55,807 nt of DNA from a virus (lineage: Duplodnaviria > Caudoviricetes): positions 1 to 55,807 of the IMG/VR virus record IMGVR_UViG_3300030329_001543. The stretch is one strand, 5' to 3'. Position 1 is the stretch's first letter, and every line of letters starts with the position of its first letter. The notes under the pieces were generated by a model, which was not told the origin of the DNA, did not search any database, and saw nothing but the letters and a program-made list of their open reading frames with translations. Shown here in pieces: positions 8,224 through 31,803 of the stretch. The position numbers and the translations under genes were made by a program.

Positions 8224-8252
8224 TTGAAAAAAATGTTATTATTTATTAAATT
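8224..8252 (+). promoter_or_regulatory. Sigma70-type promoter for the ejection cassette (TTGAAA-N17-TAAATT)
   Basis: -35 at 8224-8229, -10 at 8247-8252, followed by GGAG RBS and ATG 8273. Same -10 as two early promoters. Confidence 0.45.
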
Positions 8253-8272
8253 AATCCAGAATTGGAGTTTAT

Positions 8273-9148: not shown

Positions 9149-9930
9149 TGTTTATAACAACTAAAGCAGAATTTAAATGGGATGGTGAGAAGTATGTAGA
9201 AGTACATACTGAAGGATACGAATATGAAGGTGAATTAGCATTAGCTGATTATGGAGATGATGATGATTATACATCCCATGGGGCTGGTGGTCAAGGAGCT
9301 AACCCAGGTTCGGGAGGTAGTCCTAGCTTACAAGATTTAACTACTAAAGACGTAGGTCAAATAATGTTAGATATGGGATTTACTCAAGAAGAAGTTGATA
9401 AATATGCTGGATATGTGCCTGAATTTGACCCGTGGAAAGCTGGATATGCTCAAGAAGCTTATGATGTCAATGCAACAAGAATGGATTTAGAACAATCTGG
9501 AATTGAAACATCTAGACAATTAACTCAAGATTTATTTGGATTATCTCAACAAGGTTTATCTCAACAAATGTTTGGAGCAGCTCAAGCTGGTGAGCAAAGT
9601 TTATATGGAGCGTATCAACAGCAATCTGCTGTAGCTGGAGCTGGATTAGGAAAAAGGTCTAATATTACAGATAGAATGAGAGGTCAATCTATTTCTCAAT
9701 ATGAATCTCAAATGGATACTCTTGGATTGCAAGGATTAGAGCAAGAAGCTAAGTTTGAAGCTCAAATGGAAGATTTTACAAATCAATTATCTATGTTAGA
9801 AACTGATAGGAGTATGGCTGATATTGATTTACGAAGAGATGTAGAATCAGAGCAACGACAATATGAAGATGATTTTTGGGAATTTATGACATTTTTAAAA
9901 ACTAATTTTGATGTAGGATTTGATGACTAA
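9148..9930 (+). CDS. Ejection/internal virion protein (Q-rich helical)
   Basis: TAATG coupling, Q/E-rich helices, cassette position. Confidence 0.55.
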   Translation: MFITTKAEFKWDGEKYVEVHTEGYEYEGELALADYGDDDDYTSHGAGGQGANPGSGGSPSLQDLTTKDVGQIMLDMGFTQEEVDKYAGYVPEFDPWKAGYAQEAYDVNATRMDLEQSGIETSRQLTQDLFGLSQQGLSQQMFGAAQAGEQSLYGAYQQQSAVAGAGLGKRSNITDRMRGQSISQYESQMDTLGLQGLEQEAKFEAQMEDFTNQLSMLETDRSMADIDLRRDVESEQRQYEDDFWEFMTFLKTNFDVGFDD

Positions 9931-11816
9931 TGGCTAATATTAATATACAACAAGCACCAGATGTAGTTCTTGAAGAGCCAGGTTCAGTATTTAAAGGATT
10001 AGCTGGTAATGTATTACAAGGTGTAATAAGTGATATATTTTATCAAGCAAGACAAGATAGAAGAACTCAACAAGCTAGTTTATGGGAAGGGTATAAATTA
10101 CATGGTGAATTAGGGATTAAACTTGCAGACCCAGTTTTAGTTGAAGAAGGTATTGCTAAAATAGATTTAAAATTATCTGATGCTAGAACAAGTAACGCAG
10201 ATAAAGAACAACTTAGCGTATTAAGAGATAGTTTTGAATTACAATTAAAAGACCTTAAAAAGAAAGAACCTACGAAAGATGTTGCTTCTTCAGTAGCAGG
10301 GTTTCAAGATTTATTTCTTAATGCTAAAGGGGGAGGTAGCCCTGAATTTATTGGAGATGCAATAAATGATATGCAACATGAATATGATAGATTAATTGAT
10401 GAACATATTCCAGAAAGAATGGGAGATGTTGCAGATATTACAGAATCTTTAGAAGCTATGAGAAATAATGAATGGGCTGAATTTGCAAATAAATACTATC
10501 AAACTTCTTTTGACCCTCAGACAGGTGAACAAATATCGACTAATGAATTAAGAGATGATTTAACTAATCAAGAATTAATTCAGTTGGGATTAGACCAAGA
10601 AATTTTATCAGCAAAAAGTAAAGGATTACAAGAAGAAGCAAAAATAGCTGTTGAGGCTTCACAACTTGACCCAGAAGCCTATTTAAGAGAAGTTAGACAA
10701 AAACCAGGAGACAGAGAACTTGCCACTAGTCTTGATATATTATCTGGTCAAATAAGAATACTCGAAGAAGAAAAAAATAAATCTGAATCTATTAGAGATT
10801 GGAATATAACAATTAATGAATATGAAAAAGTTTTAATGGATGGAAAGAAAAATCCAGAAGGTTTTGGAGAATTGTCTAAGGCTCTTTTTGATGATTTAAC
10901 TGAAATTGCACAAGCAAATAGTTACCATCTTCAAAAAACTCATTTTGATATGCTAGATGATTTACAAAAAGATGCTAAAAATATAATTACTTCTTTAAAT
11001 ATACTTGATAGAGTTGCCTTAATTAAAGATAGCGGTGGATATAAAGATGAAGTTGCTCAAGACCATTTACAACAAGCATTTGATGAAGCTACTAGAGCTT
11101 ACGTTACTGGAGACACAGGGGCAGTTTCAAAAGCTGTATCTTCAATTAACTCAGCTATTAATGCAGAAGGTCGTTATAAAATAAGAATTGCAAAAGGTAT
11201 TGAAAATGATAAGAAAACAGAAACAAAGAGAGTTAAAGGTTTATTAGGAATAGAAGCTTCTAAAATAGCTGAATCATTTGGTAAAGGAGCTAAAGGAGCT
11301 GAAAGTAAAAAAGTATTTGATAGTGATTATTTAGGTGGCGGTTCTTATTCAGTTAATCAAAATCCAGAAGGGTTTCTCAAAGGTTTAAATATAGACAATC
11401 CTCAAAATTTAAATGCTAGTAAAGTTGCAGTAGGTGAAAATGTTGCTAAGCTTGTTCTTTCAAGTGATTTAGAAGGAGTCCAAGATAAAGCAAAAGCTAA
11501 GCAATTAGCAAATCAAGCTTTAAATACAAATTTAAGCAACGAGTTACAAGCTAAAGCTTTAGATGAATTATTTTCAAAACATCTTCAAGATGCTGATACT
11601 GATTTAGATTTTGAAGGAATAGGAAAAAGAGACACATCAGCTAAAAATTTATATTCTCAATATTTAAGAATGTATGAAGTATTACATACTTTTGGAATTG
11701 AGTCATCTTCTAAATGGGGTGAAGATTTTGGAGCGCAGTTTATATCGGAATATGGTCACGGTTCTGCAGCAATAGATTCTTTAACTGGAGAAGATTATGG
11801 AGGACTTTTTGACTAA
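9930..11816 (+). CDS. Ejection/internal virion protein (helical, 628 aa)
   Basis: TAATG coupling, acidic all-alpha composition, cassette position. Confidence 0.55.
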   Translation: MANINIQQAPDVVLEEPGSVFKGLAGNVLQGVISDIFYQARQDRRTQQASLWEGYKLHGELGIKLADPVLVEEGIAKIDLKLSDARTSNADKEQLSVLRDSFELQLKDLKKKEPTKDVASSVAGFQDLFLNAKGGGSPEFIGDAINDMQHEYDRLIDEHIPERMGDVADITESLEAMRNNEWAEFANKYYQTSFDPQTGEQISTNELRDDLTNQELIQLGLDQEILSAKSKGLQEEAKIAVEASQLDPEAYLREVRQKPGDRELATSLDILSGQIRILEEEKNKSESIRDWNITINEYEKVLMDGKKNPEGFGELSKALFDDLTEIAQANSYHLQKTHFDMLDDLQKDAKNIITSLNILDRVALIKDSGGYKDEVAQDHLQQAFDEATRAYVTGDTGAVSKAVSSINSAINAEGRYKIRIAKGIENDKKTETKRVKGLLGIEASKIAESFGKGAKGAESKKVFDSDYLGGGSYSVNQNPEGFLKGLNIDNPQNLNASKVAVGENVAKLVLSSDLEGVQDKAKAKQLANQALNTNLSNELQAKALDELFSKHLQDADTDLDFEGIGKRDTSAKNLYSQYLRMYEVLHTFGIESSSKWGEDFGAQFISEYGHGSAAIDSLTGEDYGGLFD

Positions 11817-11844: not shown

Positions 11845-14800
11845 ATGATAAAACAATTTTACGCACCTTGGTGGATACATACAAAAGACCCTCTTTCTGT
11901 AAGTGAGGAACCCTATAATATCTACATGGATGATGATTTATTATCCGATGAAGATATTGGTTTAAAAATACAAAAACACACACCTGAATTATGGGATTTA
12001 GCAGGTAATTATGCTGTTGGTCAAGCTAAATTAGATGAAAATGGTAAATGGACATATCCAGAATGGAATGAAGAAGCTAAAGAATTTTATGAAAGCACAT
12101 CTAATAGAGCTAGGTATTTATTAAATAATTATAAAGATTTTGAACCACTTAGAGAAAAATCACAAGTAGACAATTTAAATATTTCTTTTGGAGAGAAATG
12201 GGGATATGGAGTAGATGAATCATTTGAGCAAGCTGGTAAGGTTGGTATTCCTTCTATGCTGGCAACTGGGACAGAAATAGCTTCTTCAGCTTTAAGGTCT
12301 TTAGATGATTTAAGTAAAAATTTAGATTTAGCTTTTGAAAAAACATTTGGCGAAAGAGATGAAGCAGCAGGTCATAGAGGAATGTTGTTTCCATTTTCAT
12401 CTCAAGATGAAAAAGATTTTTGGAAAGAACAATATCAAGAAAAAAGAGATAGGATTAAAAAAGAAAAAGAGAAAAAAGAACCAGATGAATTAACATTTAA
12501 ATTTCTTGATGAAATAAATGAATGGGCTGAAAATACAGCAATAAAAAATCTAAAGTCTTTTGAAAAAAGACACGCTAAAGATTTAAGATACCAAGCTTAC
12601 CAACAATACTTACAAAATAAACCAGTGGGATGGTTTACCACTTTTGAATCTCCAGAATATTTTACAGATACAATGATTTCTATGGTGCCTTCTATGGTTG
12701 TTATGGGTGCGACTATGGGAGCTGGAATGATAGCGGGAGCTCCAGCAGCTATTGGAATTGGAATGGTAGGACATGCTCCATTAGAAGCGTCTGGCACATA
12801 TACAGAAGCCTATAGATGGACTATGGATAATTTTCAAGATGAAGAATTAGCAAGGTCAAATGCAGCTTGGTCTACTGCAGGTTATTTAACTATAGTAGCA
12901 GGAACTGAAGGTCTTGGAGCTAGCAAGTTGATAAAAGCTCTTATGCCTAAAAAAATACAAAATAGTATAAAGAATAAAGCATTTAGAACTCTTTATAAAG
13001 GAAATGTATCCGATGAAGGAAAGAAAACAGTTCTTGGTGAAATGGGTAGAAAATGGAGAGAAGGTAAACTTGTAGATAAATCAACATATCATGCATTAAC
13101 ATCTCCATTTTCAGAAGCTCTTCAAGAGTATGTTCAATATGGAGGTCAAATATTAACTGAAGCTGGCTATAAAGATGAAAGTATGAATATTATAGACATT
13201 GCTATGATGAATCATCCTTTAGTAGACCCAACTGAATTGCATGAATCGGTAGTTGGTGGAGGTTTATTTGGAAGCATATCTGGAGCTTCTGGATATTTAG
13301 GTAAAAAATTATTTTTTAATGAAGATACCAACATGGCTAATAATATATTAGCTAATGAATATGGAGTTGACACAGGTGTACCTAATGTAGATTTAAGCGA
13401 AGAAAGTCTTTATAATGTTCCTATTGTTAAAGGTGATTCTAAACCGACTTGGGAAAATTATCTTAAAGAACTAGCTAATCCTAAACCTGGTGAAGATGCT
13501 ACTATTGTTAGTAGAGAAAAATCAAAAAATACTCCATTAGGTGAGTTAATTAAAAAACAAAAAAATTATGATAATACAGCTATAGCTGAAAAAATGGCGG
13601 AAACTATTAAAGATATGGGCAAAAATGAATGGGATAAAGTAAGCCAAGACACTAAAAATAAAATTAATTCTCATTTATTAGGAGCTGTTTTAGGGTTACA
13701 AGGTAAAGGTGGGGAAGATATTGTTTCTTCAAAAATATTAAGAAATAATGATAACATAGCTAAAGACATATTAGATGGTAAAATATCATTTGAAAGGATA
13801 GGAAAAGGTCAGAAAACCCAAAGAGGATTTAATGTTAAAAGAGGGACAAGGACATTAAAGATTCACGATAAACAATATGCTGATAGTGTTGTCAAAATGT
13901 ATGAATCTGAAATATCAGAAAATTTTGAAGGTAAAGATATAAATGAAAATTCTACAGCTAGATACTTAGAAAATACTTTTGGTATAACAATAGATAAATC
14001 ATTAAAACAAGAATTAAAAAGTTCTATACAGCAAAATATTGAAGGCCAAGTTGTTTCTCAAGCTCAAAGAGAAGTTGAACAACAGGCTGAAAAACAAATT
14101 ATAGAACAAATGGAAAAAGAAACTACTGAAGCTGTAAAGAAAAAAGTAGGGATAAAAGAATACAAAACTGAACAAAAAGAATCTCCTAAAATAATTGGTC
14201 AAGAAGCTGTCTTAACAACTGGTGATTATGCAAATCAAAAAGGTGTAATTACTGCTTATGATGATAAAAAAGAACTTGTAAATATTAAACTACCCGATGG
14301 AACAAGAGTGGGACCCGTAAAATCGAGTGATGTTCAATTGTTTATGTCGGCTCCTCCTACTAAACCTACTGTTTCTAAAAAACCTGTTGGAATTATTGGT
14401 AAAGAAGGTAAAACAAAAGTTGAAACAAAAGATTCAATTAGCAAAGATTTGGATGTTTTAAGTAAGAAACAAGACAAATTGTTTGGAGAAGCAGATGATA
14501 CAATTGCATTAAAAGTTGAAGAAAAATTATATGAAAAGTATGATTTATGGGATGATGATGGGAATTTACCGACAGGTAATGAACTTATAAAAATTGAAAA
14601 AACAGGTTTGGATTATAAAAAAGATTGGACTGGTGAAAAATTTTCTATAACAGAAAAAGCAAAAGAAATTTTAAATAGTTCTGAATTAAAGGAACTTCAA
14701 TTAAATGTAGATGAAGTTAATAATATTGAAGAACAAGCAAGTAAAATTATTAAAAAATTAAAAGTATCTAAAAAAACAACTACAAAGAAAAAGCCTACTG

Positions 14801-17800
14801 ATAAAGATAAATTAAAACAACAAGTTAACCAAGCAATAGATATTAATAGAGAAATACGACAATTATCTACTGTTGCTGGATTACAAAAAGCTTTAGGTGA
14901 GGATACTAAAAAAGATGATAAAAAAATCAGAACAAATAAAGAATTGTTAAGAAGTTTATTATCAAAAGATGATGTACGACAAGAATTAAGTAAGCAAGGA
15001 AAATTAAAAGCAATAGAAAAAATTCTAGGTGAAGATACTGATACTAAGAAAAAACTTCACAGAATTGGAGATGCTTACGAAAAAGGAGAAAGAAAAGCCA
15101 CTAAAGCATTTATATCAAAAGCTGTTAGAGAAATTATGGGTAAACATTCTCCAGATATTAATAAAATATTTGTAGAAGAAATAAAAGAAGACCCTGCAGC
15201 TGTTGGTGCTTATAGTAATGGAATGGTTGAGTTTGTACTTGGAAGAGCTACTCAACACACAGCTTATCACGAACCTATACATTGGTTTATGAATAGAGTT
15301 TTAGATGATAATGATTATAATACAGTTATTAATCATTTTAAAGGTGAAGAACCTGCAACAAGAGCGGCTGCTGATTGGTACATGGGGCAAAAAGATAGAA
15401 ACTTAACAGAAAAAATTAAAGATATATTTAGAAAATTTTGGATTGCAATTCAGAAATTCTTAAATATGCAAGTTACAAAAGAAGATACAATTTTTGATAT
15501 ATTTGATAGAATAGGTAGAGACTTTACTATCAGAAATTTTAGAGATAGAATGAATGAATATGATATTGGAGCTGATGTGGATTTTGATGGGTTGCAACCA
15601 ATATATGCTTTGCCATCTATTACGACTACAACTTTTGAACAACAAATAGAAAAGTATATACATATACCTTTATCTGAATATAGACCAAGAGAACAAACGA
15701 TAGGAAGAGCAGAATTTATACTTGAAAATCCATATGTAGCGGGTAAATATAGTGGAATATCAATGTCTCAGATTCCAGCTTCTAGTTCTAGTGAAATAAT
15801 AATGCCATATTCTTATGGTTTTTCTGAGGTTTTATCGAATCAAGGAGATAAAATTTCTATATCTTCTCCTTTCTCTACAAAAAATCTTTCTAAATATGAA
15901 AAATCTGTTGTAGAAAATTTCTATAAAAATATAAAAGATGCAGAATGGACTGAAGGAAAAAAATCTGTAGATAGGGAATTATTAATTCAAAAATACGAAT
16001 CTTATATTGAACAGGAATTTCCATTAAATGCATATGCTGTAAGGTATAAACCTGAGAATATTAATCAAAATGGAAACGCTGTTCCAATGCTTTTACCTTC
16101 TTTATTACCATCTGCTGAGAAAAATAATATATCTGATGATTTCTTTTCTTCTAGAATTATGCTTACTGATAATGAATTTTACAAAGGATTTGGTCACAGA
16201 TTTCAATTAGAACAAAATTATATTGATGAAGATAAAAGTATTGAAAAATTTCCAAGTAGTCCTCAAGTAAATGGACTTGGGTGGTATGTGTATGTAGAAC
16301 CTAAAATGAAAAGACTGAAGCAATTAAATGACATTGCTATAATATATGAAATTCAACAAGATATAAATGATGTTATTGAAAAATTTGATGATAAGGGAAA
16401 AGAAGTTCAAACAAAATTAGATTCTGAAATAGATAGAAAGATTGCAGAAGGTATTATAACTCCAGAAGAAGGGGCTCGTTTATATTTAAAAAATAAAGCA
16501 TATTTTCTTGCAAAAGACAGAATGCTTCAACATGCTTCACATACAGGGGATAAAGTTTTAGTTAAAGAATTTATAACAATGTATAATAAAGACCATGAAT
16601 TTAAATTAATTCACCCTAATCGTATGCCTGATGTTTATGATAAATTAATAAGAGAAACAAAAAAATTAATAAATCGTACAAGTGACATAATTAATGAAGG
16701 AATACAAAAATCTATTGTTAATAGAATGATGACTAAAGTTATGTATGATGAAATGACACATTGGAATAATTTTAGAAAATCACTTGGTAAAGACCCTTAT
16801 CAATATATAGATAAATATTATAATTTTATTAATAAAAGATTAAATACCATCTTAACTGGTCACCCTGATAAAACTTTAAAAAATAAACTGGTTAATGATT
16901 TACAATCTACACTTGGTGATAATGTAATTGTACATGGTGAGGGTGGAGCATATTCATCGAGGAACTTAATACCTGTAGATAAAAATGGAGAACTTGATGA
17001 ATCAAGATTACAAAGTATTTCATCTCTTTTAAATAAAATTGGACTAGATAAAGAAAGTAAAAAATATATTTCACTAACTTTAAAAAATCAAAAATCTAAA
17101 TTTCCTACTATTTTAAAGACTGTTGCTAGAACAGCTGATATGAAAGAGTTAGGAGTTGAAATAAAATTTAGAATAGCATTATATGATTTTTTTAAAAGAA
17201 CTTCTGCTGATTATTCAGACCTTATAAAGAAATCGGAAGGTTCTTCTCAATTAGAACGTTCATTTAATACATATTGGGCTCAGAAAAATGCATATAATAA
17301 ACATATTAAAAGAAATCAAGAAAAACGTAATCAAAAAAATATAAAATTAAATCAAAGACTTAAATGGAAACTTTCAGATTGGTTTACTTCTGTTTCTAAA
17401 GTATCTAAAATAGCTCAAAGATATGTAGATTTATACAATAGACAAGTAGATGGGATAACAAAATCTTTACAAGATAGAGTTGATTTATGGGTTGATGATT
17501 ATGATAAGTTAAAATCTGGAGATACAGCATCTTTACAAAAAACAGATAAATTAGTAAATGAAGCAAAAAGATTTAAAGAAATATCCATACATCATTCTAT
17601 TTTAACAGCTCATCAAAGAGGTAATAAATATTGGGGAATAACAGGAGCTGACGCTAATACAAAATTAGAAGGGAATCCAAGAGCTTCTAGATTGTACGTT
17701 AATGATTATGAATTAAATGACCCTGACAGAGCTAAATCTTATGAAGAATGGAAACTTCGGTCTAATATTCTTACTGATAAAGATGTAGAAATTGATACTG

Positions 17801-20800
17801 AAAGAGAAGCTCAATTAAGAGAAATAGGAGCTGGAAATATTGTAGGTTTACTTGGACAAGAAATCGCAAGGGAAATGGGTGTAGAAAAAGAATTTGCCAA
17901 AAGGAAAAAATTAAAAGTACTGCCTTGGGTAGATAAAGAATTTGGACTTCAAAAAGGAAATCATTTAAAAAGTGATGAGCAATTAGAATCTGAATTACTT
18001 GCTATAAGACAAGATAAAATATTAAAAAGATACCAACGGATTTCTGTTTTAGATAAAGATAATAAAACTTTTACTTTACGAAATATAAAATATAATACTT
18101 CTCGTGAAATATCTCTACCTGAAGCAATTCAATTATATAAAGATGCTCCACAATTAGGAGCTGTTTGGACAGCTGCAAGAAAAGTATTAAGAAAATTAGG
18201 ATTAAATCCAGAATTTAAAAAATATTCAGCATTAGAAGCTCCTATTGTTCGAGTAAGAATACCTGACAATTTTAACGCAGTTCCAATAAAACGATTTCAT
18301 AAAATTGAAGAAGTGCCAGAGTTTCAAAAAAGTGAAAATAATTCAGAAGAAATACAAAGAAAGACTGGAGTTAAAGATGAGTCAACTCCTATAAAAGATA
18401 CAATTGTAGAGGATGCTGTTAATTTAAACAGAGCTGTACAAAACTTTAATAAACCTGAAAAAATAAAAGAATTATTTAGTTCTTCTTTTAATAAAATAAA
18501 AAATAAGTATGGTATAGAAGTTGCTGATTATGTGCCAATATTAAGTAAATCAATAAATAAATCTATTGCTATTAGAGAAGATAGGGATATGGTTAAGAAT
18601 TTATTATCTGAATGGGCTGTTAGTGTAGACCCTGATGTTGGAATTAAGATGAGAAGTGATAATAAAGCTATGAAATTAATTGATTTAATCGGCAAGACAG
18701 GAGCTAAGAAAAGAAGAATTAGAAGGCAACTTGCTGATTTAGATGTTGTAGAAAACATTGAAAGAACATTAGAAGGACACAGTCCCGAAGATAGTCATGA
18801 TGTTACTCGTGAAGGGTTGCACATATCCAATACAACTGATATTGAAGAAATAGAAAATAATAACGATATTGATACTTATAATTTTTCTGATGATAGATTT
18901 TTTAAATTTTTAGAAGAAACAAATGTTAGAGGTTATTTATCTCCAAAAGAAACTGCCGAATTAATGTCTGAAGTTGTTGTAAAAGATTTTGCAGGTTTTA
19001 CATCATATCTTTCATCTAAATATAATTGGGAACCTGTTACTACAGCTGACAATAATACAGTTAGGGGATTTTGGGTAAGGAATCAAATGATTAATAGGCA
19101 ATCTGGATACGATAAACCTTCTTGGTGGTATGCAAATGTTACATACGATGGAAAAGTATTAAGCAATAAAGATGATAAAAGATTAGTCCCCAAAGTAGGA
19201 GGTCATCCTAAATATGGAAAAGACCTTAGAAGCAACAAAGACCTTCCAAGAACTGTTGGTGTATCATTTTTAGATTATGATAATATGTCTTATGAATGGT
19301 CTAGTGGTGGAGATATTAAATATTCAAGAATGTATCTTAAAGATATGATTGATGTTCATAAGGGAGAAGAGAAAGGTGGGTATTTTTCTACATTATCTTA
19401 TGTGACATTAAATGGGCAATTAATAAGAGATTTAGATAGAAATTTTGCTAAATACGCTGATGAAGAAATAGGAGATAAAAGAGCTAGAACTATTGTTGCT
19501 GTTAAAGCTTCTGGAAATCAACCTTCTTTTATAGTTGCAAGAGCAAGTGAAGACATTATGGAAATATCTTCTAATATTGATTCTGTTGTGGATTATCTTG
19601 ATTATGAAGTAAGCATTGGTAATATGAATGAATCAAATAAAAAAGAATTATTAAAATCAATGCAACATGAAATTAAAAAATCTCCATTAAATAATTATGT
19701 AATAGCTCAACATATACTTACGCATGAAACAATGAAAAGAGCTCGAGGCAGAGATTATTTAATAAGAACTCCTAATACATCTCATCACAGCAGAAGATTA
19801 GGTATTGACGATGGTAATGGAATTGTAGCTGTAGGAGCTGGCGATTTTACTATTAAAATTATAGACCAATCTAAAGCATTTATTTCTAAAGGAGTTCCAG
19901 GTGCAACAGGTTCTTCTGCAAAAATACCTATGGCTGATTACATAGCTGGATTACCAGACAAATATCATGGTGATGGTTCTTTGTGGGTAGATTCTGATTA
20001 TTTAGATAAAACGTCATATAACATAGGTCGAATACCAACAACTGGAAATTCGTCAAAATTAAGAGAAATTAAAACAAGAATAAGATTTATAAGTAAAAAT
20101 GATGATTTTTCAAAAAAGCATTATGGTGAAGATTTGCAACCTGGTCAAGAATTAGAAGGAACTAATTACTTAGCTATGAAACATAATGAATTTGTTCCAG
20201 AAGAAAACATATATATAACAGATGAAGCTGATAACATAATAGCTTACACTGTTAACGTAGATGGAAGTATTCATATATATGATGCTGATGACAACAGAAT
20301 GACTATGTTTGGAACTCTTGATGAAGCTAAAGAACCAGATGGTGGTAGCGGTGCTTTTAAGCTAAATGGAAGAATTTCTACTAATATACTAACATTACCA
20401 GAAGAATCAAGGCGCATAGTTAAAGTTCCTAAACAACAAGGTCATAATAGTGCAGCGTTTCCGTGGATGTGGATGTCTCATTTATACGATTCTTCTTTTG
20501 ATGGTTTAAGAGATTCATTATTAACTAGAATGTTAAATGTAGCAAAAGGTAATATGAGAGCTTTATTTGCAGCTAGGCAAGACCCTCAAGTAATGAGAGC
20601 TTTAATGGGGCAATTTAAATCTGATGGATTAACTATCATGAATGAAGTAGATAGATTAATTGAACCTTCAGAAGGATTAATGATACAAGATGGATTTATG
20701 TATCCTCATATTATAAGAGGAATATTAAGTCCTATAAAAAATAGAGTTGTAAAAGAAAATTCTTATGGAGGAAGAAGAAGAGGTTTCGGAAGTTTTCCTG

Positions 20801-22836
20801 TTATTAAATCTGATTTATCTAAAACTATTGTTAGTAAAAAAGATGGAGTAGTTCTTAGTGGTGATGATGTAACTATGGTAAGATTTTTAAAAGATTTCTT
20901 AAATGTAGAAGGATTTGGCAATGAATTGATTGACAATATTAATGAAGCTTTAAGAACTAGAAAGGAATATCTAATGGTGGGAAGGTGGCCAGCTTATACT
21001 CTTAGTTCTGTGTATTTAGCTAGAATAGAAAAAGTAATGCCTAGAGGTCATGGAGATGTTGTATGGTTTCATCCAGAAACAGCTCTTGGTAAGTTGCAAG
21101 CTGACCACGATGGTGATACATCTTTCTTAATTGCTCCTTATTTTGGCATGAATTATATGGATAGAAGTGTTATTAATAAATTTAATAACAAAGAAGTCAA
21201 GGATTCTTTTTCAAATATGGAAAGCTTTGTTCGATTGGAGTATTTTAAAAAATCGAATATAAATTATAAAATGACATCTAAAAGAGATATGTATATTACT
21301 GTTGGTAAGTTAGGTAGAGGTATGAACTCTCAAGGAATGTTAATGAACGCAGTAACATTTATGGAAGATATGTATTCAAAAGATTTAAAAATGGAAATAG
21401 GTGGTCAAAAAATTGTTGTTAGAAATCCAAATGAAGAAAATATTATTATGTCTTATGCAAAGCTAAATGATGATGTTACACAAGAAATGTTAGATTTAGC
21501 TAAGATGGGTCAATTGGTTAACAAAGATGGTTCTCAATGGACAGAAGGCGACAAATATTTAAAAACAAGTCCTTTAAAACAATTACATATATTATTGCAG
21601 GCAGCTGTTGATAATTCAAAAGAGTTTTTATTAGCTGATTGGGGATTCGGTGGATGGGTATGGATAGCTCCAAGAATGTTTATTCAAGATAATGGCTCTC
21701 CTATTGGTTCAAAACAAGCTCATACTATTTCTTCAATAGTAAGAAAGCAATTAATGAATAATGTCTCTAGGCGTGGTGTAGATATGGATACAAATAGGAC
21801 TCAAGATATTGATGGAATGTTTCACACTAGTAAAAAAATGTATGAGTTAAATCAAATGTCTGGTATAGAAAGGGGAATGGAAATTAAAGACAGAGCAAAT
21901 ACTAGAAGAATAAAATATGGTAAAGATAGTAAATTGGCAAAAAGGACTTACGCAATTGATAAAATTACTTTCAATAATAAACTACTACCACTTGAAAGAT
22001 TAATTGCTGTACCTCATGAATCTTTAATTGAATATCAAGAAAATAATCCAGATGATAAAGTACATAACAATCCTTTAGGTTATCATCCTAATAGAATACA
22101 AAGAGGTATAATGTACACACAGCAAGATATGTACACACTTCAAAAAGAAACAGAGCGATGGTATCCAGAAACAGAGCAATTTGAAAAAGATAAAGAAGTT
22201 GCTAGAAGATTTACAAATGAAATGGGTCGTGAATTTTATAGAATTGCTATGAAACATAGAATGTATAATGATTCAACTAAAAGTAGAATTACATCTTCTG
22301 GTTACCCATATCAAGATGAAATTGTTAAATTTATTGATAAATGGTTGAATAAAACTGATAAAAAGTATTTTAAAAAAGTTGGACTCCCATCTTGGAAAGA
22401 ATTATCTGAAGAACAACAAGCGTATTCTTCTCTTAGATTTCTTAGGGGTATATTGACTTATTCTCCTAAAACACATGAAAAAGTTGGAGAACAAGAAAAA
22501 AGATTATTTAATAGACTTGTAGATTTAAAATCTAAATTAAATGAAGAAATTGATTTAGGTATAGTTGAAAGAATAGAATCAAACATAGCAAAAGTTGAAA
22601 AGCAGTTAGACAATATATATACACCTGCTACATATCAAAATATGTCAAGACCTAGAGATATAGAAACAGTATTACCAATGCCATTAATGCACCCAGATGT
22701 TTGGAGAACATATGCTAATTTGTTCGGGCCAAACCTAAGAAGAGCTTCAAGTGAAAAAATTAGTTTAAAAGCTGACACTAGATATGAGGATAGACAAAGA
22801 AGGACTGTTGAATCAATACTGAAGGAGTGTGGATAA
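11845..22836 (+). CDS. Giant polyvalent virion protein with predicted single-chain two-barrel RNA polymerase, zincin-like metallopeptidase and KOW-like domains
   Basis: DG (aa 2710), K2779, K2829, RWP (aa 3047), ADHDGD (aa 3086-3091; DHDGD at nt 21103-21117), GMLMN (aa 3164-3168), AVDNSK (aa 3254-3259). HEPIH at aa 1142-1146. KOW-like GQEAVLTTGDYANQKGVI. N-terminal hydrophobic/Gly-rich segments. Confidence 0.8.
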   Translation: MIKQFYAPWWIHTKDPLSVSEEPYNIYMDDDLLSDEDIGLKIQKHTPELWDLAGNYAVGQAKLDENGKWTYPEWNEEAKEFYESTSNRARYLLNNYKDFEPLREKSQVDNLNISFGEKWGYGVDESFEQAGKVGIPSMLATGTEIASSALRSLDDLSKNLDLAFEKTFGERDEAAGHRGMLFPFSSQDEKDFWKEQYQEKRDRIKKEKEKKEPDELTFKFLDEINEWAENTAIKNLKSFEKRHAKDLRYQAYQQYLQNKPVGWFTTFESPEYFTDTMISMVPSMVVMGATMGAGMIAGAPAAIGIGMVGHAPLEASGTYTEAYRWTMDNFQDEELARSNAAWSTAGYLTIVAGTEGLGASKLIKALMPKKIQNSIKNKAFRTLYKGNVSDEGKKTVLGEMGRKWREGKLVDKSTYHALTSPFSEALQEYVQYGGQILTEAGYKDESMNIIDIAMMNHPLVDPTELHESVVGGGLFGSISGASGYLGKKLFFNEDTNMANNILANEYGVDTGVPNVDLSEESLYNVPIVKGDSKPTWENYLKELANPKPGEDATIVSREKSKNTPLGELIKKQKNYDNTAIAEKMAETIKDMGKNEWDKVSQDTKNKINSHLLGAVLGLQGKGGEDIVSSKILRNNDNIAKDILDGKISFERIGKGQKTQRGFNVKRGTRTLKIHDKQYADSVVKMYESEISENFEGKDINENSTARYLENTFGITIDKSLKQELKSSIQQNIEGQVVSQAQREVEQQAEKQIIEQMEKETTEAVKKKVGIKEYKTEQKESPKIIGQEAVLTTGDYANQKGVITAYDDKKELVNIKLPDGTRVGPVKSSDVQLFMSAPPTKPTVSKKPVGIIGKEGKTKVETKDSISKDLDVLSKKQDKLFGEADDTIALKVEEKLYEKYDLWDDDGNLPTGNELIKIEKTGLDYKKDWTGEKFSITEKAKEILNSSELKELQLNVDEVNNIEEQASKIIKKLKVSKKTTTKKKPTDKDKLKQQVNQAIDINREIRQLSTVAGLQKALGEDTKKDDKKIRTNKELLRSLLSKDDVRQELSKQGKLKAIEKILGEDTDTKKKLHRIGDAYEKGERKATKAFISKAVREIMGKHSPDINKIFVEEIKEDPAAVGAYSNGMVEFVLGRATQHTAYHEPIHWFMNRVLDDNDYNTVINHFKGEEPATRAAADWYMGQKDRNLTEKIKDIFRKFWIAIQKFLNMQVTKEDTIFDIFDRIGRDFTIRNFRDRMNEYDIGADVDFDGLQPIYALPSITTTTFEQQIEKYIHIPLSEYRPREQTIGRAEFILENPYVAGKYSGISMSQIPASSSSEIIMPYSYGFSEVLSNQGDKISISSPFSTKNLSKYEKSVVENFYKNIKDAEWTEGKKSVDRELLIQKYESYIEQEFPLNAYAVRYKPENINQNGNAVPMLLPSLLPSAEKNNISDDFFSSRIMLTDNEFYKGFGHRFQLEQNYIDEDKSIEKFPSSPQVNGLGWYVYVEPKMKRLKQLNDIAIIYEIQQDINDVIEKFDDKGKEVQTKLDSEIDRKIAEGIITPEEGARLYLKNKAYFLAKDRMLQHASHTGDKVLVKEFITMYNKDHEFKLIHPNRMPDVYDKLIRETKKLINRTSDIINEGIQKSIVNRMMTKVMYDEMTHWNNFRKSLGKDPYQYIDKYYNFINKRLNTILTGHPDKTLKNKLVNDLQSTLGDNVIVHGEGGAYSSRNLIPVDKNGELDESRLQSISSLLNKIGLDKESKKYISLTLKNQKSKFPTILKTVARTADMKELGVEIKFRIALYDFFKRTSADYSDLIKKSEGSSQLERSFNTYWAQKNAYNKHIKRNQEKRNQKNIKLNQRLKWKLSDWFTSVSKVSKIAQRYVDLYNRQVDGITKSLQDRVDLWVDDYDKLKSGDTASLQKTDKLVNEAKRFKEISIHHSILTAHQRGNKYWGITGADANTKLEGNPRASRLYVNDYELNDPDRAKSYEEWKLRSNILTDKDVEIDTEREAQLREIGAGNIVGLLGQEIAREMGVEKEFAKRKKLKVLPWVDKEFGLQKGNHLKSDEQLESELLAIRQDKILKRYQRISVLDKDNKTFTLRNIKYNTSREISLPEAIQLYKDAPQLGAVWTAARKVLRKLGLNPEFKKYSALEAPIVRVRIPDNFNAVPIKRFHKIEEVPEFQKSENNSEEIQRKTGVKDESTPIKDTIVEDAVNLNRAVQNFNKPEKIKELFSSSFNKIKNKYGIEVADYVPILSKSINKSIAIREDRDMVKNLLSEWAVSVDPDVGIKMRSDNKAMKLIDLIGKTGAKKRRIRRQLADLDVVENIERTLEGHSPEDSHDVTREGLHISNTTDIEEIENNNDIDTYNFSDDRFFKFLEETNVRGYLSPKETAELMSEVVVKDFAGFTSYLSSKYNWEPVTTADNNTVRGFWVRNQMINRQSGYDKPSWWYANVTYDGKVLSNKDDKRLVPKVGGHPKYGKDLRSNKDLPRTVGVSFLDYDNMSYEWSSGGDIKYSRMYLKDMIDVHKGEEKGGYFSTLSYVTLNGQLIRDLDRNFAKYADEEIGDKRARTIVAVKASGNQPSFIVARASEDIMEISSNIDSVVDYLDYEVSIGNMNESNKKELLKSMQHEIKKSPLNNYVIAQHILTHETMKRARGRDYLIRTPNTSHHSRRLGIDDGNGIVAVGAGDFTIKIIDQSKAFISKGVPGATGSSAKIPMADYIAGLPDKYHGDGSLWVDSDYLDKTSYNIGRIPTTGNSSKLREIKTRIRFISKNDDFSKKHYGEDLQPGQELEGTNYLAMKHNEFVPEENIYITDEADNIIAYTVNVDGSIHIYDADDNRMTMFGTLDEAKEPDGGSGAFKLNGRISTNILTLPEESRRIVKVPKQQGHNSAAFPWMWMSHLYDSSFDGLRDSLLTRMLNVAKGNMRALFAARQDPQVMRALMGQFKSDGLTIMNEVDRLIEPSEGLMIQDGFMYPHIIRGILSPIKNRVVKENSYGGRRRGFGSFPVIKSDLSKTIVSKKDGVVLSGDDVTMVRFLKDFLNVEGFGNELIDNINEALRTRKEYLMVGRWPAYTLSSVYLARIEKVMPRGHGDVVWFHPETALGKLQADHDGDTSFLIAPYFGMNYMDRSVINKFNNKEVKDSFSNMESFVRLEYFKKSNINYKMTSKRDMYITVGKLGRGMNSQGMLMNAVTFMEDMYSKDLKMEIGGQKIVVRNPNEENIIMSYAKLNDDVTQEMLDLAKMGQLVNKDGSQWTEGDKYLKTSPLKQLHILLQAAVDNSKEFLLADWGFGGWVWIAPRMFIQDNGSPIGSKQAHTISSIVRKQLMNNVSRRGVDMDTNRTQDIDGMFHTSKKMYELNQMSGIERGMEIKDRANTRRIKYGKDSKLAKRTYAIDKITFNNKLLPLERLIAVPHESLIEYQENNPDDKVHNNPLGYHPNRIQRGIMYTQQDMYTLQKETERWYPETEQFEKDKEVARRFTNEMGREFYRIAMKHRMYNDSTKSRITSSGYPYQDEIVKFIDKWLNKTDKKYFKKVGLPSWKELSEEQQAYSSLRFLRGILTYSPKTHEKVGEQEKRLFNRLVDLKSKLNEEIDLGIVERIESNIAKVEKQLDNIYTPATYQNMSRPRDIETVLPMPLMHPDVWRTYANLFGPNLRRASSEKISLKADTRYEDRQRRTVESILKECG

Positions 22837-25800
22837 TGAGTTATTGTGATGATAAAAAACTAGCATCAGTTTTAGTTGAAGAATCTAGAAAAGAAATAGA
22901 GACAAATTTAGAAAAAGGTATTTCTAATATTATTGAATATCCTCATAGTAATGTAAAAAATTTAAGAAAAAAATATAAAGAAGCTACTAAAGCTAGAGAA
23001 AGGAAAACTTTATTAAAACATATAGATATTGAGAAAAAAAGATTTAAAGCTCATCAAAATTTATTTAATCATATTATGAGAAAAAGTATTGATGATTTGC
23101 ATAATGTAAGCGCTTTTGTGATTCCAGATGAATATGTAAGCAATAGGTTAGATTTTATACAAGGTGTTTTTCAAGAAGCTTATTCTAAATCTGCGTTTGC
23201 TAAAAGAGATGAAGGTCTTTCTAAATCTGGATTAAATAATTCATCTCAATGGGATGCTCCTAAAATAAATTATATTTTATATAAAATGAAACAATGGGAG
23301 AAAAGAGCAAATTCAGATAAAGAATTAAGTAGCTATGAAAAAACAATTAAGATGCCTTTATTAGTTGCATCTGCTATTGACCCGAGTGGTCAAGTAAGAA
23401 AATTTGTTAAAATGACAACCACTCTTTTAGATTCTTATTTACAAATAGGGTACCCGTGGAAAACAAGTATTATTGACCCCATAACAAAGCAAAAAAATCC
23501 TATTTCTTTACAATCTATAGAAGATAAATTAAAAGGTATTGGAGCAAGAGGGGAAGTTTCTGATATGTCCAATTATCAAAAAACTGTTGCGGCTACTCAA
23601 TTATCAGAAGAATTACTACATGATGAAGTTAGAAGTATAATCCCTAGAGATATACCAACAAACCCTAAAGAGTTTACTAAATGGAGAAATTCTTGGGAAG
23701 GTAAACAATTTTTTCAAATGATAAAATTTGAATCTGAAAGACATGAAATAGGTGATTCTGATTCAAGGTATGTTATGATACCATTACACAGCTCTGATAA
23801 AGGTATAAAGATTTTATCAAAATATAGAAAATATCAAAAAAGTTCTGGACAAAAAGCTGTTATTCCAAATGAAAATGAAAATGCATTTATTGTTTATAGG
23901 ATACCAGACAATCTTAAATCTTTCTTTTCTTCTATAAAAAACAATAAATCTATTACAAAAGAATCTTTAGAAGAACAAATAAAACCAAGCGAATTAGAGG
24001 AAGGTTTTTTTACAGCTCAAGAGCATAGAGTTTATAAATATGAATCAATACCTGGAACAGATACACCTAAACGAAAATATGCAGATTGGAAAAAAGGTGT
24101 AAAATTTCAAAATAAGATATACGACCCACCAGATTCTTGGATGCCTGAAATGTGGGATTCTATTGAAATGCAACGCGAATGGAATGAATTATTCTATGAA
24201 AAAGTATTAAAAAAAGAACATTCTAAAGTAATGCAAGAGCTTGATGATTACATGGCTAAAATACAACCTATTCTAATGGAAAACGGTTGGCATGTTGATG
24301 ATATTCAAGAAATGTTTGATAAGATAAGTAGTATTGGTGGAATTAAATTTAATCTTACTCAAGACAAGCAAGGAAACTTTATATCTTCAAATTCTTTTGT
24401 TAGAAAAGCATCTAAGTTTGGATATGGTCATATTAAATTTGAAAATGCTGTTTATTTAGACATGGTTCAAGAAGCTGTTAAAGCTATAAGTTCTTCATAT
24501 TTACCAGAAATAGATGCTCAAATAGCTACTGATGAAAATATATTAAATAGTGAAGAATCTGATTTAGTTGAAAAAGCAGAATCAAGAGAAAGATTAGCTG
24601 ATTTTTATAAAAGAAAAAAATATTATGAAGATATGTTAAATAATCTTGAAAAAAGATTATACGGAGATACTGATACAGAAGCTGATAAAAAAGAAATTAT
24701 GATGGTTCATAAAATATTAGCTACAAAAGGAAGAACATTATTTACTGACCATAAAAAAAGAAGAAAAGACAGGTCTTTATGGTCTGAATATGTAGATGAA
24801 GCTATAAGAGCTAATGAATTAACAAGGATGAAAATAGAATTGTTTAAAACAATCTTAGCGTTTAAAGACAATCCATCTTTAGTTAATTATATTGTTGACC
24901 AAACTAAAGTAGCAGCTGGTGATGCTGATATTGAAGCTGGGTTTTTTAATTTAAATTATAGCGATTCTAATATTTCTAAAATATTTAAAAATTGGTTTGG
25001 AAAAGATGTATCACCTGAGCGAATTAGAGACACAGGAGTGTTTATAAGGTCTTTAAAAACTGCTTTTAATTTAGGAATGGGAACAGCTTTTACTAACAAT
25101 TTTCAAAGAGCAAATGGGATTATAAATTATGGATTTGATTATGTAATGGACTCTATGAGAGCAATGAATCCATCTAGTGAAAACAATGGAACTCAAAATC
25201 ATAAATATCAAGAATTAATTGAACAAGTAGAAGAAACAGGAGTTCTTCACCCTGGCAATGCTTTTATTGATATGCTTACTTTAGGAATGGACTTAGGGCA
25301 AGGAAATAGCTCCGATGCTAAAGAAGCTATTCTTCCATTAGTAGATTTAATTAGATTGCAAAAAGCTACAAGTTTAGAAGGTTGGTTAGACCAAAGTAAA
25401 TCTTGGGATAAATTAATAACATCAGCTCAAAATCGAGGAGCTGTTGGAGAAAAAATACAATTAGAAGAAATACAAAGAGTTAAAAAAGAAATATATGAAA
25501 TATATCATGGTGATTATAAACCTAAACATAAAAAATATTTACAAAATAGATTAAAAGATTTAAGATTAGGTTTGTCGCAATCAGCTATCAACAGATTAGT
25601 TAAATGGAAATTAGAATGGTTTCCTACTGCTGGTGAATATACTACAATGTCTGGAAGTGAAAGAAGAATGAGGTCTGAATTTGCTTTTATAGGATTCAAA
25701 TTATCAGAAGAAATGGGTAGAGTAAATATTCCAGAATCGGGAGATTGGAAGTACACAGATTCTCAAGATGCAATAGACATGGCTAGATTGTCAGTATATA

Positions 25801-26558
25801 TGAATTTATTTGGATTTACAAAAGTTATGGCTTCTAAAATGTTTAGAGGTGCAGTTGGAGGTATGGGATGGCAATTTAGACAATATGATTATCATCAAAC
25901 AATTGTTGAAATGGAATGGTTAAGGTCTGCGGCTATGTCTCCAGAGGGGATGCTTAGTAATAAAGCTCTTGGATATGGAGCTTTGGCATTTAAAATCCCA
26001 TGGCAGATAGCTAAAAAATCAATGAGAGGAGGTATGCACGCAGCTAGATTAGCTGGGATGACAAAAGAACAAGTTCTTTATTGGCAAAAACATTCTTTTT
26101 TAAACAAAGATTATGATGATAAAAATTTAGATAGAGCAACAAATTTCTTTTTAATTAGGGGTCTTCCTACCATAATGTTAAAATTTTTATATTTTAATTT
26201 TGCACCATACACAATTTTTAGAAGTGTTCAAGGATTAGCTAGGTCTTTTACTAAAGATGATATTAACATGAGAGCTTCTAGAGGTCTTGAAAGTATGGTT
26301 GTTTCAAAAATAATTACAGCAAGTATGTTGCTTTCATATGCTTTTGATATAGGTATGATGTCAGTTGATGACGAAGATGATACAATAGAAGATGCTATTA
26401 GGCAATTACCATTTAGTATGGAAATAATAACAATGTTATTATGGGTAGTTGATTTTGGTGAAAATTTCTGGAGAGGAGCTAGACCATACCTACCAACTCC
26501 TTTTAAACAATTAGGAGATGAATCTGTAAGAGAATTTGCAGATGATATAATTAACTAA
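22836..26558 (+). CDS. Large ejection protein with C-terminal hydrophobic helices (inner-membrane channel type); probable start MSYCDD at 22836
   Basis: TAATG coupling to the giant gene. Several hydrophobic segments in the last ~150 aa, as in podophage ejection proteins. Last gene of the late block. Confidence 0.6.
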   Translation: MSYCDDKKLASVLVEESRKEIETNLEKGISNIIEYPHSNVKNLRKKYKEATKARERKTLLKHIDIEKKRFKAHQNLFNHIMRKSIDDLHNVSAFVIPDEYVSNRLDFIQGVFQEAYSKSAFAKRDEGLSKSGLNNSSQWDAPKINYILYKMKQWEKRANSDKELSSYEKTIKMPLLVASAIDPSGQVRKFVKMTTTLLDSYLQIGYPWKTSIIDPITKQKNPISLQSIEDKLKGIGARGEVSDMSNYQKTVAATQLSEELLHDEVRSIIPRDIPTNPKEFTKWRNSWEGKQFFQMIKFESERHEIGDSDSRYVMIPLHSSDKGIKILSKYRKYQKSSGQKAVIPNENENAFIVYRIPDNLKSFFSSIKNNKSITKESLEEQIKPSELEEGFFTAQEHRVYKYESIPGTDTPKRKYADWKKGVKFQNKIYDPPDSWMPEMWDSIEMQREWNELFYEKVLKKEHSKVMQELDDYMAKIQPILMENGWHVDDIQEMFDKISSIGGIKFNLTQDKQGNFISSNSFVRKASKFGYGHIKFENAVYLDMVQEAVKAISSSYLPEIDAQIATDENILNSEESDLVEKAESRERLADFYKRKKYYEDMLNNLEKRLYGDTDTEADKKEIMMVHKILATKGRTLFTDHKKRRKDRSLWSEYVDEAIRANELTRMKIELFKTILAFKDNPSLVNYIVDQTKVAAGDADIEAGFFNLNYSDSNISKIFKNWFGKDVSPERIRDTGVFIRSLKTAFNLGMGTAFTNNFQRANGIINYGFDYVMDSMRAMNPSSENNGTQNHKYQELIEQVEETGVLHPGNAFIDMLTLGMDLGQGNSSDAKEAILPLVDLIRLQKATSLEGWLDQSKSWDKLITSAQNRGAVGEKIQLEEIQRVKKEIYEIYHGDYKPKHKKYLQNRLKDLRLGLSQSAINRLVKWKLEWFPTAGEYTTMSGSERRMRSEFAFIGFKLSEEMGRVNIPESGDWKYTDSQDAIDMARLSVYMNLFGFTKVMASKMFRGAVGGMGWQFRQYDYHQTIVEMEWLRSAAMSPEGMLSNKALGYGALAFKIPWQIAKKSMRGGMHAARLAGMTKEQVLYWQKHSFLNKDYDDKNLDRATNFFLIRGLPTIMLKFLYFNFAPYTIFRSVQGLARSFTKDDINMRASRGLESMVVSKIITASMLLSYAFDIGMMSVDDEDDTIEDAIRQLPFSMEIITMLLWVVDFGENFWRGARPYLPTPFKQLGDESVREFADDIIN

Positions 26559-26601
26559 AAAAAAAGGGCAAATGACAATCATTTAAGACTATCACTTGCC
26601 C
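26557..26601 (-). terminator. Intrinsic terminator ending the early (minus) block at the convergence point
   Basis: Minus strand GGGCAAGTGATAGTC-ttaaat-GATTGTCATTTGCCC (15 bp, 3 G:U) followed by a ~10-T tract. Confidence 0.8.
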
Positions 26602-26700
26602 ATATATTATTTTAATAGTTTAGTAATTTTATGTATTTCCTCATTTAATTTTCTTAATAATTCAGATATTGCTTTTAATTTCTTTTTTATATATTCTTCA

Positions 26701-26928
26701 TTATTCATTTGTTCCCCCTCCAATTTGTATATATAAGTTGCTGATACCTATTTTAAATGTTGTTAACTCAGCAGATATATTTAATTCAAACCATATTATA
26801 TCATAAAACAAATACAATGTTATAATATTTTGTTTTGTAAATGCTTTTACTATTAAATGGTCGATTTTTATTAGAGGATATAAACTTTTTTGCCATTTAT
26901 ATCTTGCTTTTATTTTCTTAACCGCCAC
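26701..26928 (-). CDS. Hypothetical protein
   Basis: ORF track. GAGG RBS at the end of the upstream gene. Confidence 0.45.
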   Translation of the reverse strand: MAVKKIKARYKWQKSLYPLIKIDHLIVKAFTKQNIITLYLFYDIIWFELNISAELTTFKIGISNLYIQIGGGTNE

Positions 26929-29028: not shown

Positions 29029-29037
29029 TGTCTCTCC

Positions 29038-31802: not shown

Positions 31803-31803
31803 T

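Follow-up and report, generated by a model that had tools for sequence, protein, structure and literature searches.

The viral record IMGVR_UViG_3300030329_001543, analysed here over its whole length of 55,807 bases (the window; 31.8% G + C, classed as linear, CheckV completeness estimate 100%), encodes a giant protein of 3663 amino acids (aa) in a single open reading frame (ORF). The C-terminal 1,200–1,500 residues of this protein probably form a single-chain two-barrel RNA polymerase (RNAP), which is homologous to the virion RNAPs (vRNAPs) of crAss-like phages, has the fold of the RNA interference (RNAi) polymerase QDE-1 and would be made late in infection, packaged, ejected and used for the transcription of early genes. 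An earlier note on this DNA, made from the sequence alone, had assigned the region to the crAss/QDE-1 type. The assignment is supported by residue conservation throughout the family, by a confident fold model with gp66 of phage phi14:2 and QDE-1 as the best solved matches, and by profile homology to the crAss cores. The giant ORF, its polymerase module and the seven motifs of the module are located as follows.

11845..22836, plus strand: giant ORF (P0001), 3663 aa, one open frame with an N-terminal module, a variable middle and a predicted C-terminal RNA polymerase
18322..22833, plus strand: C-terminal polymerase module, aa ~2160–3663 (modelled: aa 2480–3663), a conserved block in all homologues
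19972..19977, plus strand: D2710-G2711 of HGDGSLWV (aa 2708–2715; D2710 at nucleotide 19972), first (beta-like) barrel region, each residue conserved in 46/46
20179..20181, plus strand: K2779 of LAMKH (aa 2776–2780), 47/47
20329..20331, plus strand: K2829 of DEAKE (aa 2826–2830), 48/48
20983..20991, plus strand: R3047-W-P3049 (RxP) of MVGRWP (aa 3044–3049), start of the second (beta-prime-like) barrel, R in 49/51 (Lys in 2) and P in 51/51
21103..21117, plus strand: D3087-H-D-G-D3091 of LQADHDGDT (aa 3084–3092), predicted Mg-binding catalytic loop, 40 aa after R3047
21331..21348, plus strand: Q3163-G-M-L-M-N3168 of SQGMLMN (aa 3162–3168), G3164 and N3168 each in 47/51
21604..21621, plus strand: A3254-V-D-N-S-K3259 (AVDxxK) helix of LQAAVDNSKE (aa 3251–3260), D3256 in 51/51 and K3259 in 45/51

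Each of the seven strings, which the earlier note had placed at these residues and bases, occurs once in the giant protein. Conservation was counted in an alignment of 53 rows (A1; the window and 52 homologues), in which identity to the window falls to 19–24%, and every count includes only the rows with a residue at the respective column. An alignment of homologues had been proposed as a check of the prediction; it showed D2710, K2779 and K2829 to be invariant and R3047 to be nearly so. In the catalytic loop, D3087 and D3089 are kept in 52/52 rows each, D3091 in 51/52 (one Asn) and G3090 in 46/52 (six Ile). The second residue of the loop is variable (H in 17 rows, F in 17, Y in 7, others in the rest), and DHDGD is therefore only the local form of DxDGD; the His, which had been regarded as a distinguishing trait, is not one. 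The loop of QDE-1 is a Gly-containing DxDGD. Judged by the order of the elements, K2779 and K2829 are the putative counterparts of the catalytic Lys residues of the beta subunit, gp66 or QDE-1. Residues Q3163 to N3168 are located at the start of a helix of the structural model (model residues 683–699, corresponding to aa 3162–3178), after the second barrel.

A word-indexed search with aa 2650–3350 yielded 46 proteins of 2063–3944 aa, all metagenomic and one of them the window's own cluster. An exhaustive HMMER search with aa 2480–3663 extended the family to 79 cluster representatives at E ≤ 1e-3; their number is 57 with the threshold set to E ≤ 1e-10, and 23 with E ≤ 1e-30. Judged from the aligned sequences, the seven motifs are the conserved core of this family of 79 cluster representatives. 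The giant protein contains the pattern D.DGD once, and all six reading frames of the window together (111,610 translated residues) contain it twice. When the giant protein was shuffled 2000 times, two of the resulting sequences had R.P with D.DGD 30–50 aa further on. The conservation of the residues across the family is a stronger argument against chance than these motif statistics.

The AlphaFold2 (AF2) model of aa 2480–3663, based on an alignment of 33 rows, has a mean predicted local distance difference test score (pLDDT) of 84.9 and a predicted template modelling score (pTM) of 0.80. Comparison of this model with the PDB by Foldseek, a check that had likewise been suggested, yielded phi14:2 gp66 (6vr4_A, E 2.1e-10, prob 1.00) at rank 1 and QDE-1 (7y7p_B, E 2.2e-6, 1093 columns) at rank 2. 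The next ranks are held by bacterial beta-prime chains, eukaryotic largest subunits (Rpb1) and the non-virion RNAP of phage AR9. All 50 best solved matches are two-barrel RNAPs, and the alignments with gp66 and QDE-1 each exceed 1000 columns. The gp66 paper reports 479 equivalent residues between gp66 and QDE-1, with an identity of 8.6%. Among the viral models of BFVD, the three best matches were A0A516M7V2, A0A516LUR1 and A0A516LSI3 (E 9e-46 to 6e-36, TM 0.56–0.74, 16–17% identity), which are probably members of the same polymerase family. They are followed by two more unnamed proteins and then by proteins of uncultured crAss-like phages with E values of 1e-10 to 1e-4.

Homology to the crAss enzymes was also found by comparison of profiles. 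When an alignment of the window family (A2) was compared by hhalign with one of nine crAss sequences (A4), made up of the core of gp66 and of its orthologues from eight crAss-like GenBank records, the probability was 93.6% and the E value 2.1e-7; the match spans 231 columns, and the RxP and DxDxD motifs of the two alignments fall on each other. The match covers aa 2885–3125 of the window protein and aa ~1140–1392 of gp66, which is only the connector leading into the DxDxD barrel. The AVDxxK stretch falls outside it; here the crAss core consensus reads FLAASVDNAKDPVL, compared with LLQAAVDNSKEFLL in the window, and V, D and K are invariant in the nine crAss sequences. At the profile level, this match indicates that the polymerase module is homologous to the crAss enzymes, which is more than the sharing of a motif.

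No relative of the polymerase was detected by tblastn in the GenBank phage collection, which may omit records very near the window: aa 2301–3663 gave no match, neither did P0089, a relative with Ile in the loop, and P0067, another Ile-loop relative, gave matches only outside its polymerase region. The core of gp66 itself (aa 1000–1700) was found in 136 GenBank records; those listed belong to crAss-like or Flavobacterium FpV-type phages and are mostly 85–102 kb in length, with one of 32.6 kb. As an aside, aa 979–1216 of P0067, a non-polymerase segment, weakly match 'structural protein' genes of the crAss-like Flavobacterium phages FpV21, Fpv20 and relatives (E 1e-3, 27%), and in FPSV-D18 a match of this type is located ~2.6 kb beyond the gp66-like core of that record.

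Compared to gp66 and the other Crassvirales enzymes (6VR4), the predicted polymerase is likewise a single chain with the same order of elements, and RxP, DxDxD and A(A/S)VDNxK are common to both. Both polymerases belong to very large proteins whose genes are located among those of the virion, and in each case another large gene follows. Giant size as such is common in crAss-like phages, in which annotated vRNAP-bearing ORFs reach ~4,550 aa (13,656 nucleotides, nt). Identity in the structural alignment with gp66 is ~11%. At the fourth position of the loop, 46 of the 52 family members have Gly, in contrast to Ile or Val in the nine crAss-like cores (D-F-D-V/I-D); according to the gp66 preprint, all crAss-like phages have Ile or Val at this position, and each Asp of the loop is required for the activity of gp66. 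Unlike in gp66, the polymerase of the window is C-terminal, behind a conserved N-terminal module and a region with an HExxH motif. The window also differs from Crassvirales in its length (55.8 kb versus 85–102 kb), in having no DNA polymerase match and in its frequent Shine-Dalgarno-like sites.

QDE-1, the RNAi polymerase of Neurospora crassa (7Y7P, 2J7N), is also a single-chain two-barrel enzyme, with a TM score of 0.39 by target length; in contrast to the window protein it is eukaryotic and has no giant fusion, and the two are ~11% identical. In size and modular logic, the window protein resembles gp50 of phage N4 (Schitoviridae), a virion protein of ~3,500 aa with a helical N-terminal region, a polymerase module and an HExxH motif. 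In PMC5512222, N4 gp50 is portrayed as starting with a helical region for injection, which is followed by the polymerase and, towards the C-terminus, by a part that contains an HExxH zincin domain; fusion to an HExxH peptidase domain is reported there for nearly all virion RNAPs of the N4 type. The polymerase of N4 gp50 is T7-like and is located in the middle of the protein, whereas that of the window is C-terminal and its fold matches two-barrel RNAPs only; an N4/T7-like polymerase was therefore rejected as a candidate. According to PMC10770324, gp96 of phage P23-45 is a two-barrel virion RNAP within a giant tape measure protein that also has metallopeptidase and transmembrane regions, and its loop is DFDGD. 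The fusion of a two-barrel polymerase into a giant protein with a metallopeptidase region is thus shared, while the P23-45 polymerase is N-terminal, in the tape measure protein of a long-tailed phage, and of flat architecture without the C-terminal clamp part; gp96 is absent from the 50 best solved matches. The window protein follows the domain logic of the N4 and P23-45 proteins in another arrangement.

The domain map of the giant protein was obtained by BLASTP of its whole length against all collected homologues. Its features outside the polymerase are listed below.

11845..14400, plus strand: N-terminal conserved module, aa ~1–850, mostly helical, possibly a packaging/ejection module
12697..12753, plus strand: most hydrophobic segment, aa 285–303, Gly/Ala/Met-rich, borderline transmembrane by Kyte-Doolittle hydropathy
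14197..14340, plus strand: small KOW/Tudor-like (SH3-like) beta-barrel, aa ~785–832, a weak candidate
14485..18321, plus strand: variable middle, aa ~881–2159, delimited by the BLASTP coverage map
15268..15282, plus strand: HEPIH (HExxH), aa 1142–1146, candidate zincin-type metallopeptidase site

Colinear homologues of full length exist, for example P0009 (3653 aa), which aligns over residues 1–3663 with 61% identity. The N-terminal module is present in relatives of 2500–3900 aa, and aa ~210–486 are retained even in distant ones. Its AF2 model is mostly helical and of lower quality (pLDDT 65.9, pTM 0.47). The segment at aa 285–303 has the highest Kyte-Doolittle mean over 19 residues in the giant protein (1.58) and adjoins the invariant residues P282 and S283. 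For the small barrel, three sub-significant matches were obtained: KOW in Pfam (E 0.006), KOW/L24/Tudor by Foldseek (E ≥ 0.14) and L24 in the PDB profile search (E 0.18).

The middle region is confined to nearer relatives and is absent or replaced in homologues of 2000–2900 aa, some of which carry GNAT or HATPase_c_3 Pfam domains in its place. From this distribution it looks like swappable cargo. Shorter relatives with other domains at this position are P0015, P0016, P0018, P0019, P0031, P0032, P0017 and P0034; the substitutes are PF13673, PF13508 and PF00583 (GNAT), PF13589 (HATPase_c_3), PF12694 and PF25176, and one shorter relative is labelled as a RelE-type endonuclease by one source. The HExxH motif is present in 13/13 long homologues that hold the middle region, with H1142, E1143 and H1146 invariant in the corresponding alignment (A5, 14 rows), and the region is a candidate gluzincin peptidase. 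Pfam and PDB profile searches with the HExxH region gave no match to any peptidase. Two Glu residues further on are likewise conserved in A5: E1169, which follows H1146 at a distance of 23 residues, has no exceptions, and E1168 occurs in at least 90% of the rows. Atlas leads for the middle region point to polyvalent-protein LPD/ART-PolyVal clusters with scores of 0.79–0.86, which is below the level of 0.9 that counts. The polyvalent proteins of phages (Iyer et al. 2017) unite several unrelated effector domains in a single giant polypeptide that is injected, typically together with a zincin HExxH peptidase. The modular layout, the swappable middle and the invariant HExxH of the window protein recall such proteins, while the Atlas leads are sub-threshold and no peptidase match was obtained.

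The giant ORF is located near the end of a plus-strand block that contains the genes for terminase, portal, major capsid protein (MCP) and tail fibre. The surrounding features are as follows.

window end and window start, plus strand: tail fibre gene, which leaves the window at its end and continues at its start
1.8–4.1 kb: small ORFs, between the tail fibre and the five mid-size ORFs
4787..11816, plus strand: five ORFs (940, 204, 291, 260 and 628 aa) upstream of the giant ORF, weak candidates for internal/ejection proteins
22827..26558, plus strand: 1243-aa ORF, conserved partner, overlapping the giant ORF by 10 nt
26566–26601, minus strand: strong, terminator-like hairpin (15 pairs) with a T-run after it on this strand, at the point where the structural block and the replication block converge
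39660–40439, plus strand: terminase small subunit (TerS), structural/packaging block
between TerS and TerL, plus strand: nuclease pair
42209–43777, plus strand: terminase large subunit (TerL), PHROG 38
between TerL and portal, plus strand: endolysin
44354–46597, plus strand: portal, PHROG 156
47563–49158, plus strand: MCP, Pfam SU10_MCP (E 3.7e-15), no PHROG match

The minus-strand replication block starts near 39.3 kb and encodes a RuvC-type resolvase, DnaB, a DNA methyltransferase, a DUF932 protein, a PD-(D/E)XK nuclease and a ParB-like protein. A DnaB/Sak/RuvC module had been suggested; DnaB and the resolvase are indeed present, while Sak was not found in the ORFs scanned. In line with the proposed lack of a DNA polymerase and primase, PolA, PolB, Toprim_2, Prim-Pol and the DnaG zinc-ribbon gave no match in domain profile searches of the record. 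Sigma-70 region 2 was not matched in the record either, and no tRNA genes were found there. Among the five ORFs upstream of the giant ORF, the 940-aa protein weakly matches phrog_511 ('internal virion protein', E 3.1e-5), and the 291-aa protein has a single hydrophobic segment (aa 64–95) in a hydropathy scan; the 204-, 260- and 628-aa proteins gave no match in Pfam and PHROG family scans.

The 1243-aa ORF downstream has a counterpart in the related L007 record, in which a 2453-aa RNAP protein is followed in the same order by a 1255-aa ORF; the two smaller proteins match with E 9e-27 over ~1000 aa. This order is paralleled in phi14:2 by gp66 and then gp65, the latter annotated as 'RNA polymerase associated protein'. 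The 1243-aa protein has no Pfam or PHROG match, and only unnamed viral clusters were returned by Atlas.

We propose the following course of events. The enzyme would consist of a first barrel region with D2710/G2711, K2779 and K2829, a helical connector, and a second barrel with R3047-x-P3049 and the Mg-binding loop, followed by the QGxxxN and AVDxxK helices. The giant protein would be synthesised late, along with the structural genes. Gene position, architecture and analogy suggest that it is then packed into the capsid and ejected together with the DNA, with the N-terminal module serving packaging and ejection. In the cell, it may transcribe the first phage genes independently of the host polymerase and ahead of the stages that need it, as do phi14:2 gp66 and the unrelated enzyme N4 gp50. 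In PMC5512222 and PMC13434306, N4 gp50 is described as ejected with the DNA and as transcribing the early genes. Candidates for early genes in the window are the minus-strand block from ~39.3 kb or the small ORFs at 1.8–4.1 kb. By analogy to N4-type fusions, the HExxH region may act as a zincin-type peptidase that perhaps processes the protein, and the 1243-aa protein may be a co-packaged partner. Packaging, injection and DNA-dependent activity are suggested by gene position, architecture and comparison with these systems. Promoter searches gave no signal for either type of polymerase: sigma-70 consensus sites in 26400–42300 numbered 89 versus 93.7 expected, and a repeat search of the record revealed no recurring intergenic motif fit for a polymerase-specific promoter.

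Several results weigh against a packaged two-barrel polymerase. The global TM scores by query length are only 0.36 for gp66 and 0.32 for QDE-1, with root-mean-square deviations of 21 and 13 Å, which we ascribe to the sharing of the core only. The two double-psi barrels and the active-site geometry are deduced from structural matches of the predicted model. When compared with gp66 alone, the family profile reached an E value of 0.028 and a probability of 1.8%, although RWP was placed on RIP and DHDGD on DFDID (1361–1365) of gp66. Searches with the giant protein returned only KOW (E 0.042) and SBDS (E 0.47) in Pfam, both under the cut-off, an Arc-like repressor (E 0.0064) in PHROGs and, by phmmer in the PDB, a radical-SAM chain matching the C-terminal tail (E 0.009), which was taken as chance; when the PDB was searched with the profiles of A2 and A5, no match had an E value under 0.18. 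The search of the record for a T7-type RNAP (PF00940) found no match and is uninformative, as its positive control was silent in every genome. Concerning ejection, the model of the N-terminal module had 0 Foldseek matches in the PDB at E ≤ 0.001 and shows no recognisable ejection-protein fold; a label as ejection or membrane domain consequently has no structural grounds. No segment of the giant protein reaches the transmembrane cut-off of 1.6 (Kyte-Doolittle mean over 19 residues). Finally, the 1243-aa protein has no similarity to phi14:2 gp65 (E 0.32).

An active two-barrel RNAP could also remain unpackaged and transcribe middle or late genes inside the cell, in the manner of P23-45 gp64 or of the jumbo-phage enzymes that are not part of the virion. 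Two-barrel polymerases of the non-virion type are described in PMC10770324, and packaging is read here from gene position and architecture. This alternative is nevertheless unlikely: ~2,100 residues of other sequence precede the polymerase in the fusion, its gene is located in the structural block and not with the replication or early genes, and both characterised enzymes that are embedded in giant proteins encoded among virion genes are virion proteins. A polymerase made only late would, moreover, be unable to start its own expression.

Since the record has DnaB and no match to PolA, PolB, Toprim_2, Prim-Pol or the DnaG zinc-ribbon, the enzyme might serve mainly as a primase substitute that makes replication primers, or might copy RNA, as QDE-1 can; QDE-1 is both DNA- and RNA-dependent according to PMC9508822. 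We regard this main role as quite improbable. A phage without a DNA polymerase probably relies on the host replisome including its primase, and a role in priming is compatible with transcription.

It is very unlikely that the fold is kept in an inactive structural or ejection component. The polymerase does make up a minor share of the giant protein, and the gp66 crystal represents a self-inhibited state, as described in the preprint, but every predicted catalytic residue is kept in homologues down to ~20% identity. The rest of the module diverges fast: in the L002 record (G003), the polymerase module is only 64% identical to that of the window, compared to 96% for TerL and 95% for MCP. The combination of fast divergence with fixed catalytic residues points to selection on the active site. 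The polymerase protein thus evolves far more rapidly than the head genes, with no change in the residues of its active site. A two-barrel DNA polymerase of the PolD type as the missing replicase is hardly credible, as all 50 best solved matches are RNA polymerases with no PolD chain among them and the homologues found by profile comparison are crAss virion RNAPs, even though the genome has no PolA or PolB match and PolD also has two double-psi barrels (PMC10770324).

The phage itself appears, at the sensitivity reached, to belong to a lineage distinct from Crassvirales, which is in line with the unusual lineage that the earlier note had proposed. In BLASTP comparisons with phi14:2, TerL (best E 0.92) and MCP of the window gave no match and portal only one with E 0.035. 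The PHROGs of TerL, portal and MCP are 6681, 6547 and 11589 in phi14:2 compared to 38, 156 and none in the window, without overlap. This comparison is made with one reference phage at the level of BLAST and hidden Markov models, at which a very remote relationship of the structural modules could be missed. Based on these families of TerL, portal and MCP, a small crAss-like phage was rejected as an identification. Among GenBank phages, TerL reached at best 24.2% identity in the matches listed and stayed below 60% in all 406 records, no portal match extends over more than 40% of the protein, MCP had no match, and no phage with a matching RNAP region was found.

A more distant relative that points to a coherent lineage is the L007 record (G001; 60,298 bases, CheckV 100%). 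Its TerL and MCP are 50% and 58% identical to those of the window, the polymerase module of its 2453-aa protein is 22–27% identical, and PolA and PolB gave no match in it. The TerL of G001 (C1:52593-55235, minus strand) matches that of the window in two pieces, aa 1–75 and 69–519, which are ~990 nt (~330 codons) apart inside one open frame of 889 aa; the gap suggests an insertion that keeps the frame, perhaps an intein.

The strong use of Shine-Dalgarno sites noted before was confirmed, with GGAG/GAGG/AGGA upstream of 23/45 ORFs compared to 7.2% of random 15-mers. Such sites are rare in Bacteroidota. Their frequency therefore hints at a host of another phylum and speaks against a Bacteroidota host. 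The polymerase module had no relative in the genome contigs searched. Relatives of DnaB were found only on two short contigs of metagenome-assembled genomes (L022 and L023; 2.3 kb and 4.1 kb, 54–57% identity), which are labelled Dehalococcoidales and Flavobacteriales; these are probably phage fragments binned by chance, and the labels were not taken as host evidence.

Two-barrel virion RNAPs are a known kind, described in Crassvirales (2020/21) and P23-45 (2024). The novelty lies in the phage lineage, in the way the domains are arranged and in the Gly-type catalytic loop. In a literature search by title and abstract, with supplements and subscription-only papers outside its scope, no description of this lineage or of a gp66-type polymerase outside Crassvirales was found. 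It is conceivable, though doubtful, that the window represents an undescribed family-level lineage of marine phages of ~55–60 kb without their own DNA polymerase and primase, which start infection with an injected two-barrel RNAP in an N4-style polyvalent protein. The polymerase class of gp66 and QDE-1 would then be an old mobile virion module and no hallmark of Crassvirales, and the enzyme might prime replication too. As most members keep DxDGD, this branch, rather than the crAss enzymes, may be nearer to the proposed phage ancestor of the eukaryotic RNAi polymerases. The occurrence of this enzyme class in a phage that by these tests is not crAss-like, with about half the genome size and another capsid and packaging module, widens the range of phages in which early transcription is probably independent of the host. 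The 79 new cluster representatives would help to trace the origin of single-chain two-barrel polymerases, including eukaryotic RNAi enzymes, and the compact, confidently modelled module is open to biochemistry. Constant ends with a swappable middle (HExxH here; GNAT and others in relatives) would represent a natural exchange of cargo in injected phage proteins. These points concern phage transcription and polymerase evolution and hold no surprise of principle.

Both ends of the record (1–1714 and 53502–55807) are located inside tail-fibre-like ORFs made of internal repeats. Positions 575–657 equal 55725–55807 at 99% and positions 1–201 equal 55565–55765 at 91%, but the offsets of the two pairs disagree. 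The genome is probably circularly permuted and its assembly interrupted in a fibre gene rich in repeats, which leaves the exact genome length uncertain. In the replication block, the DUF932 gene (29858–30655, minus strand; Pfam E 8.8e-19) overlaps the start of the DNA methyltransferase gene (29038–29946, minus strand) by ~90 nt.

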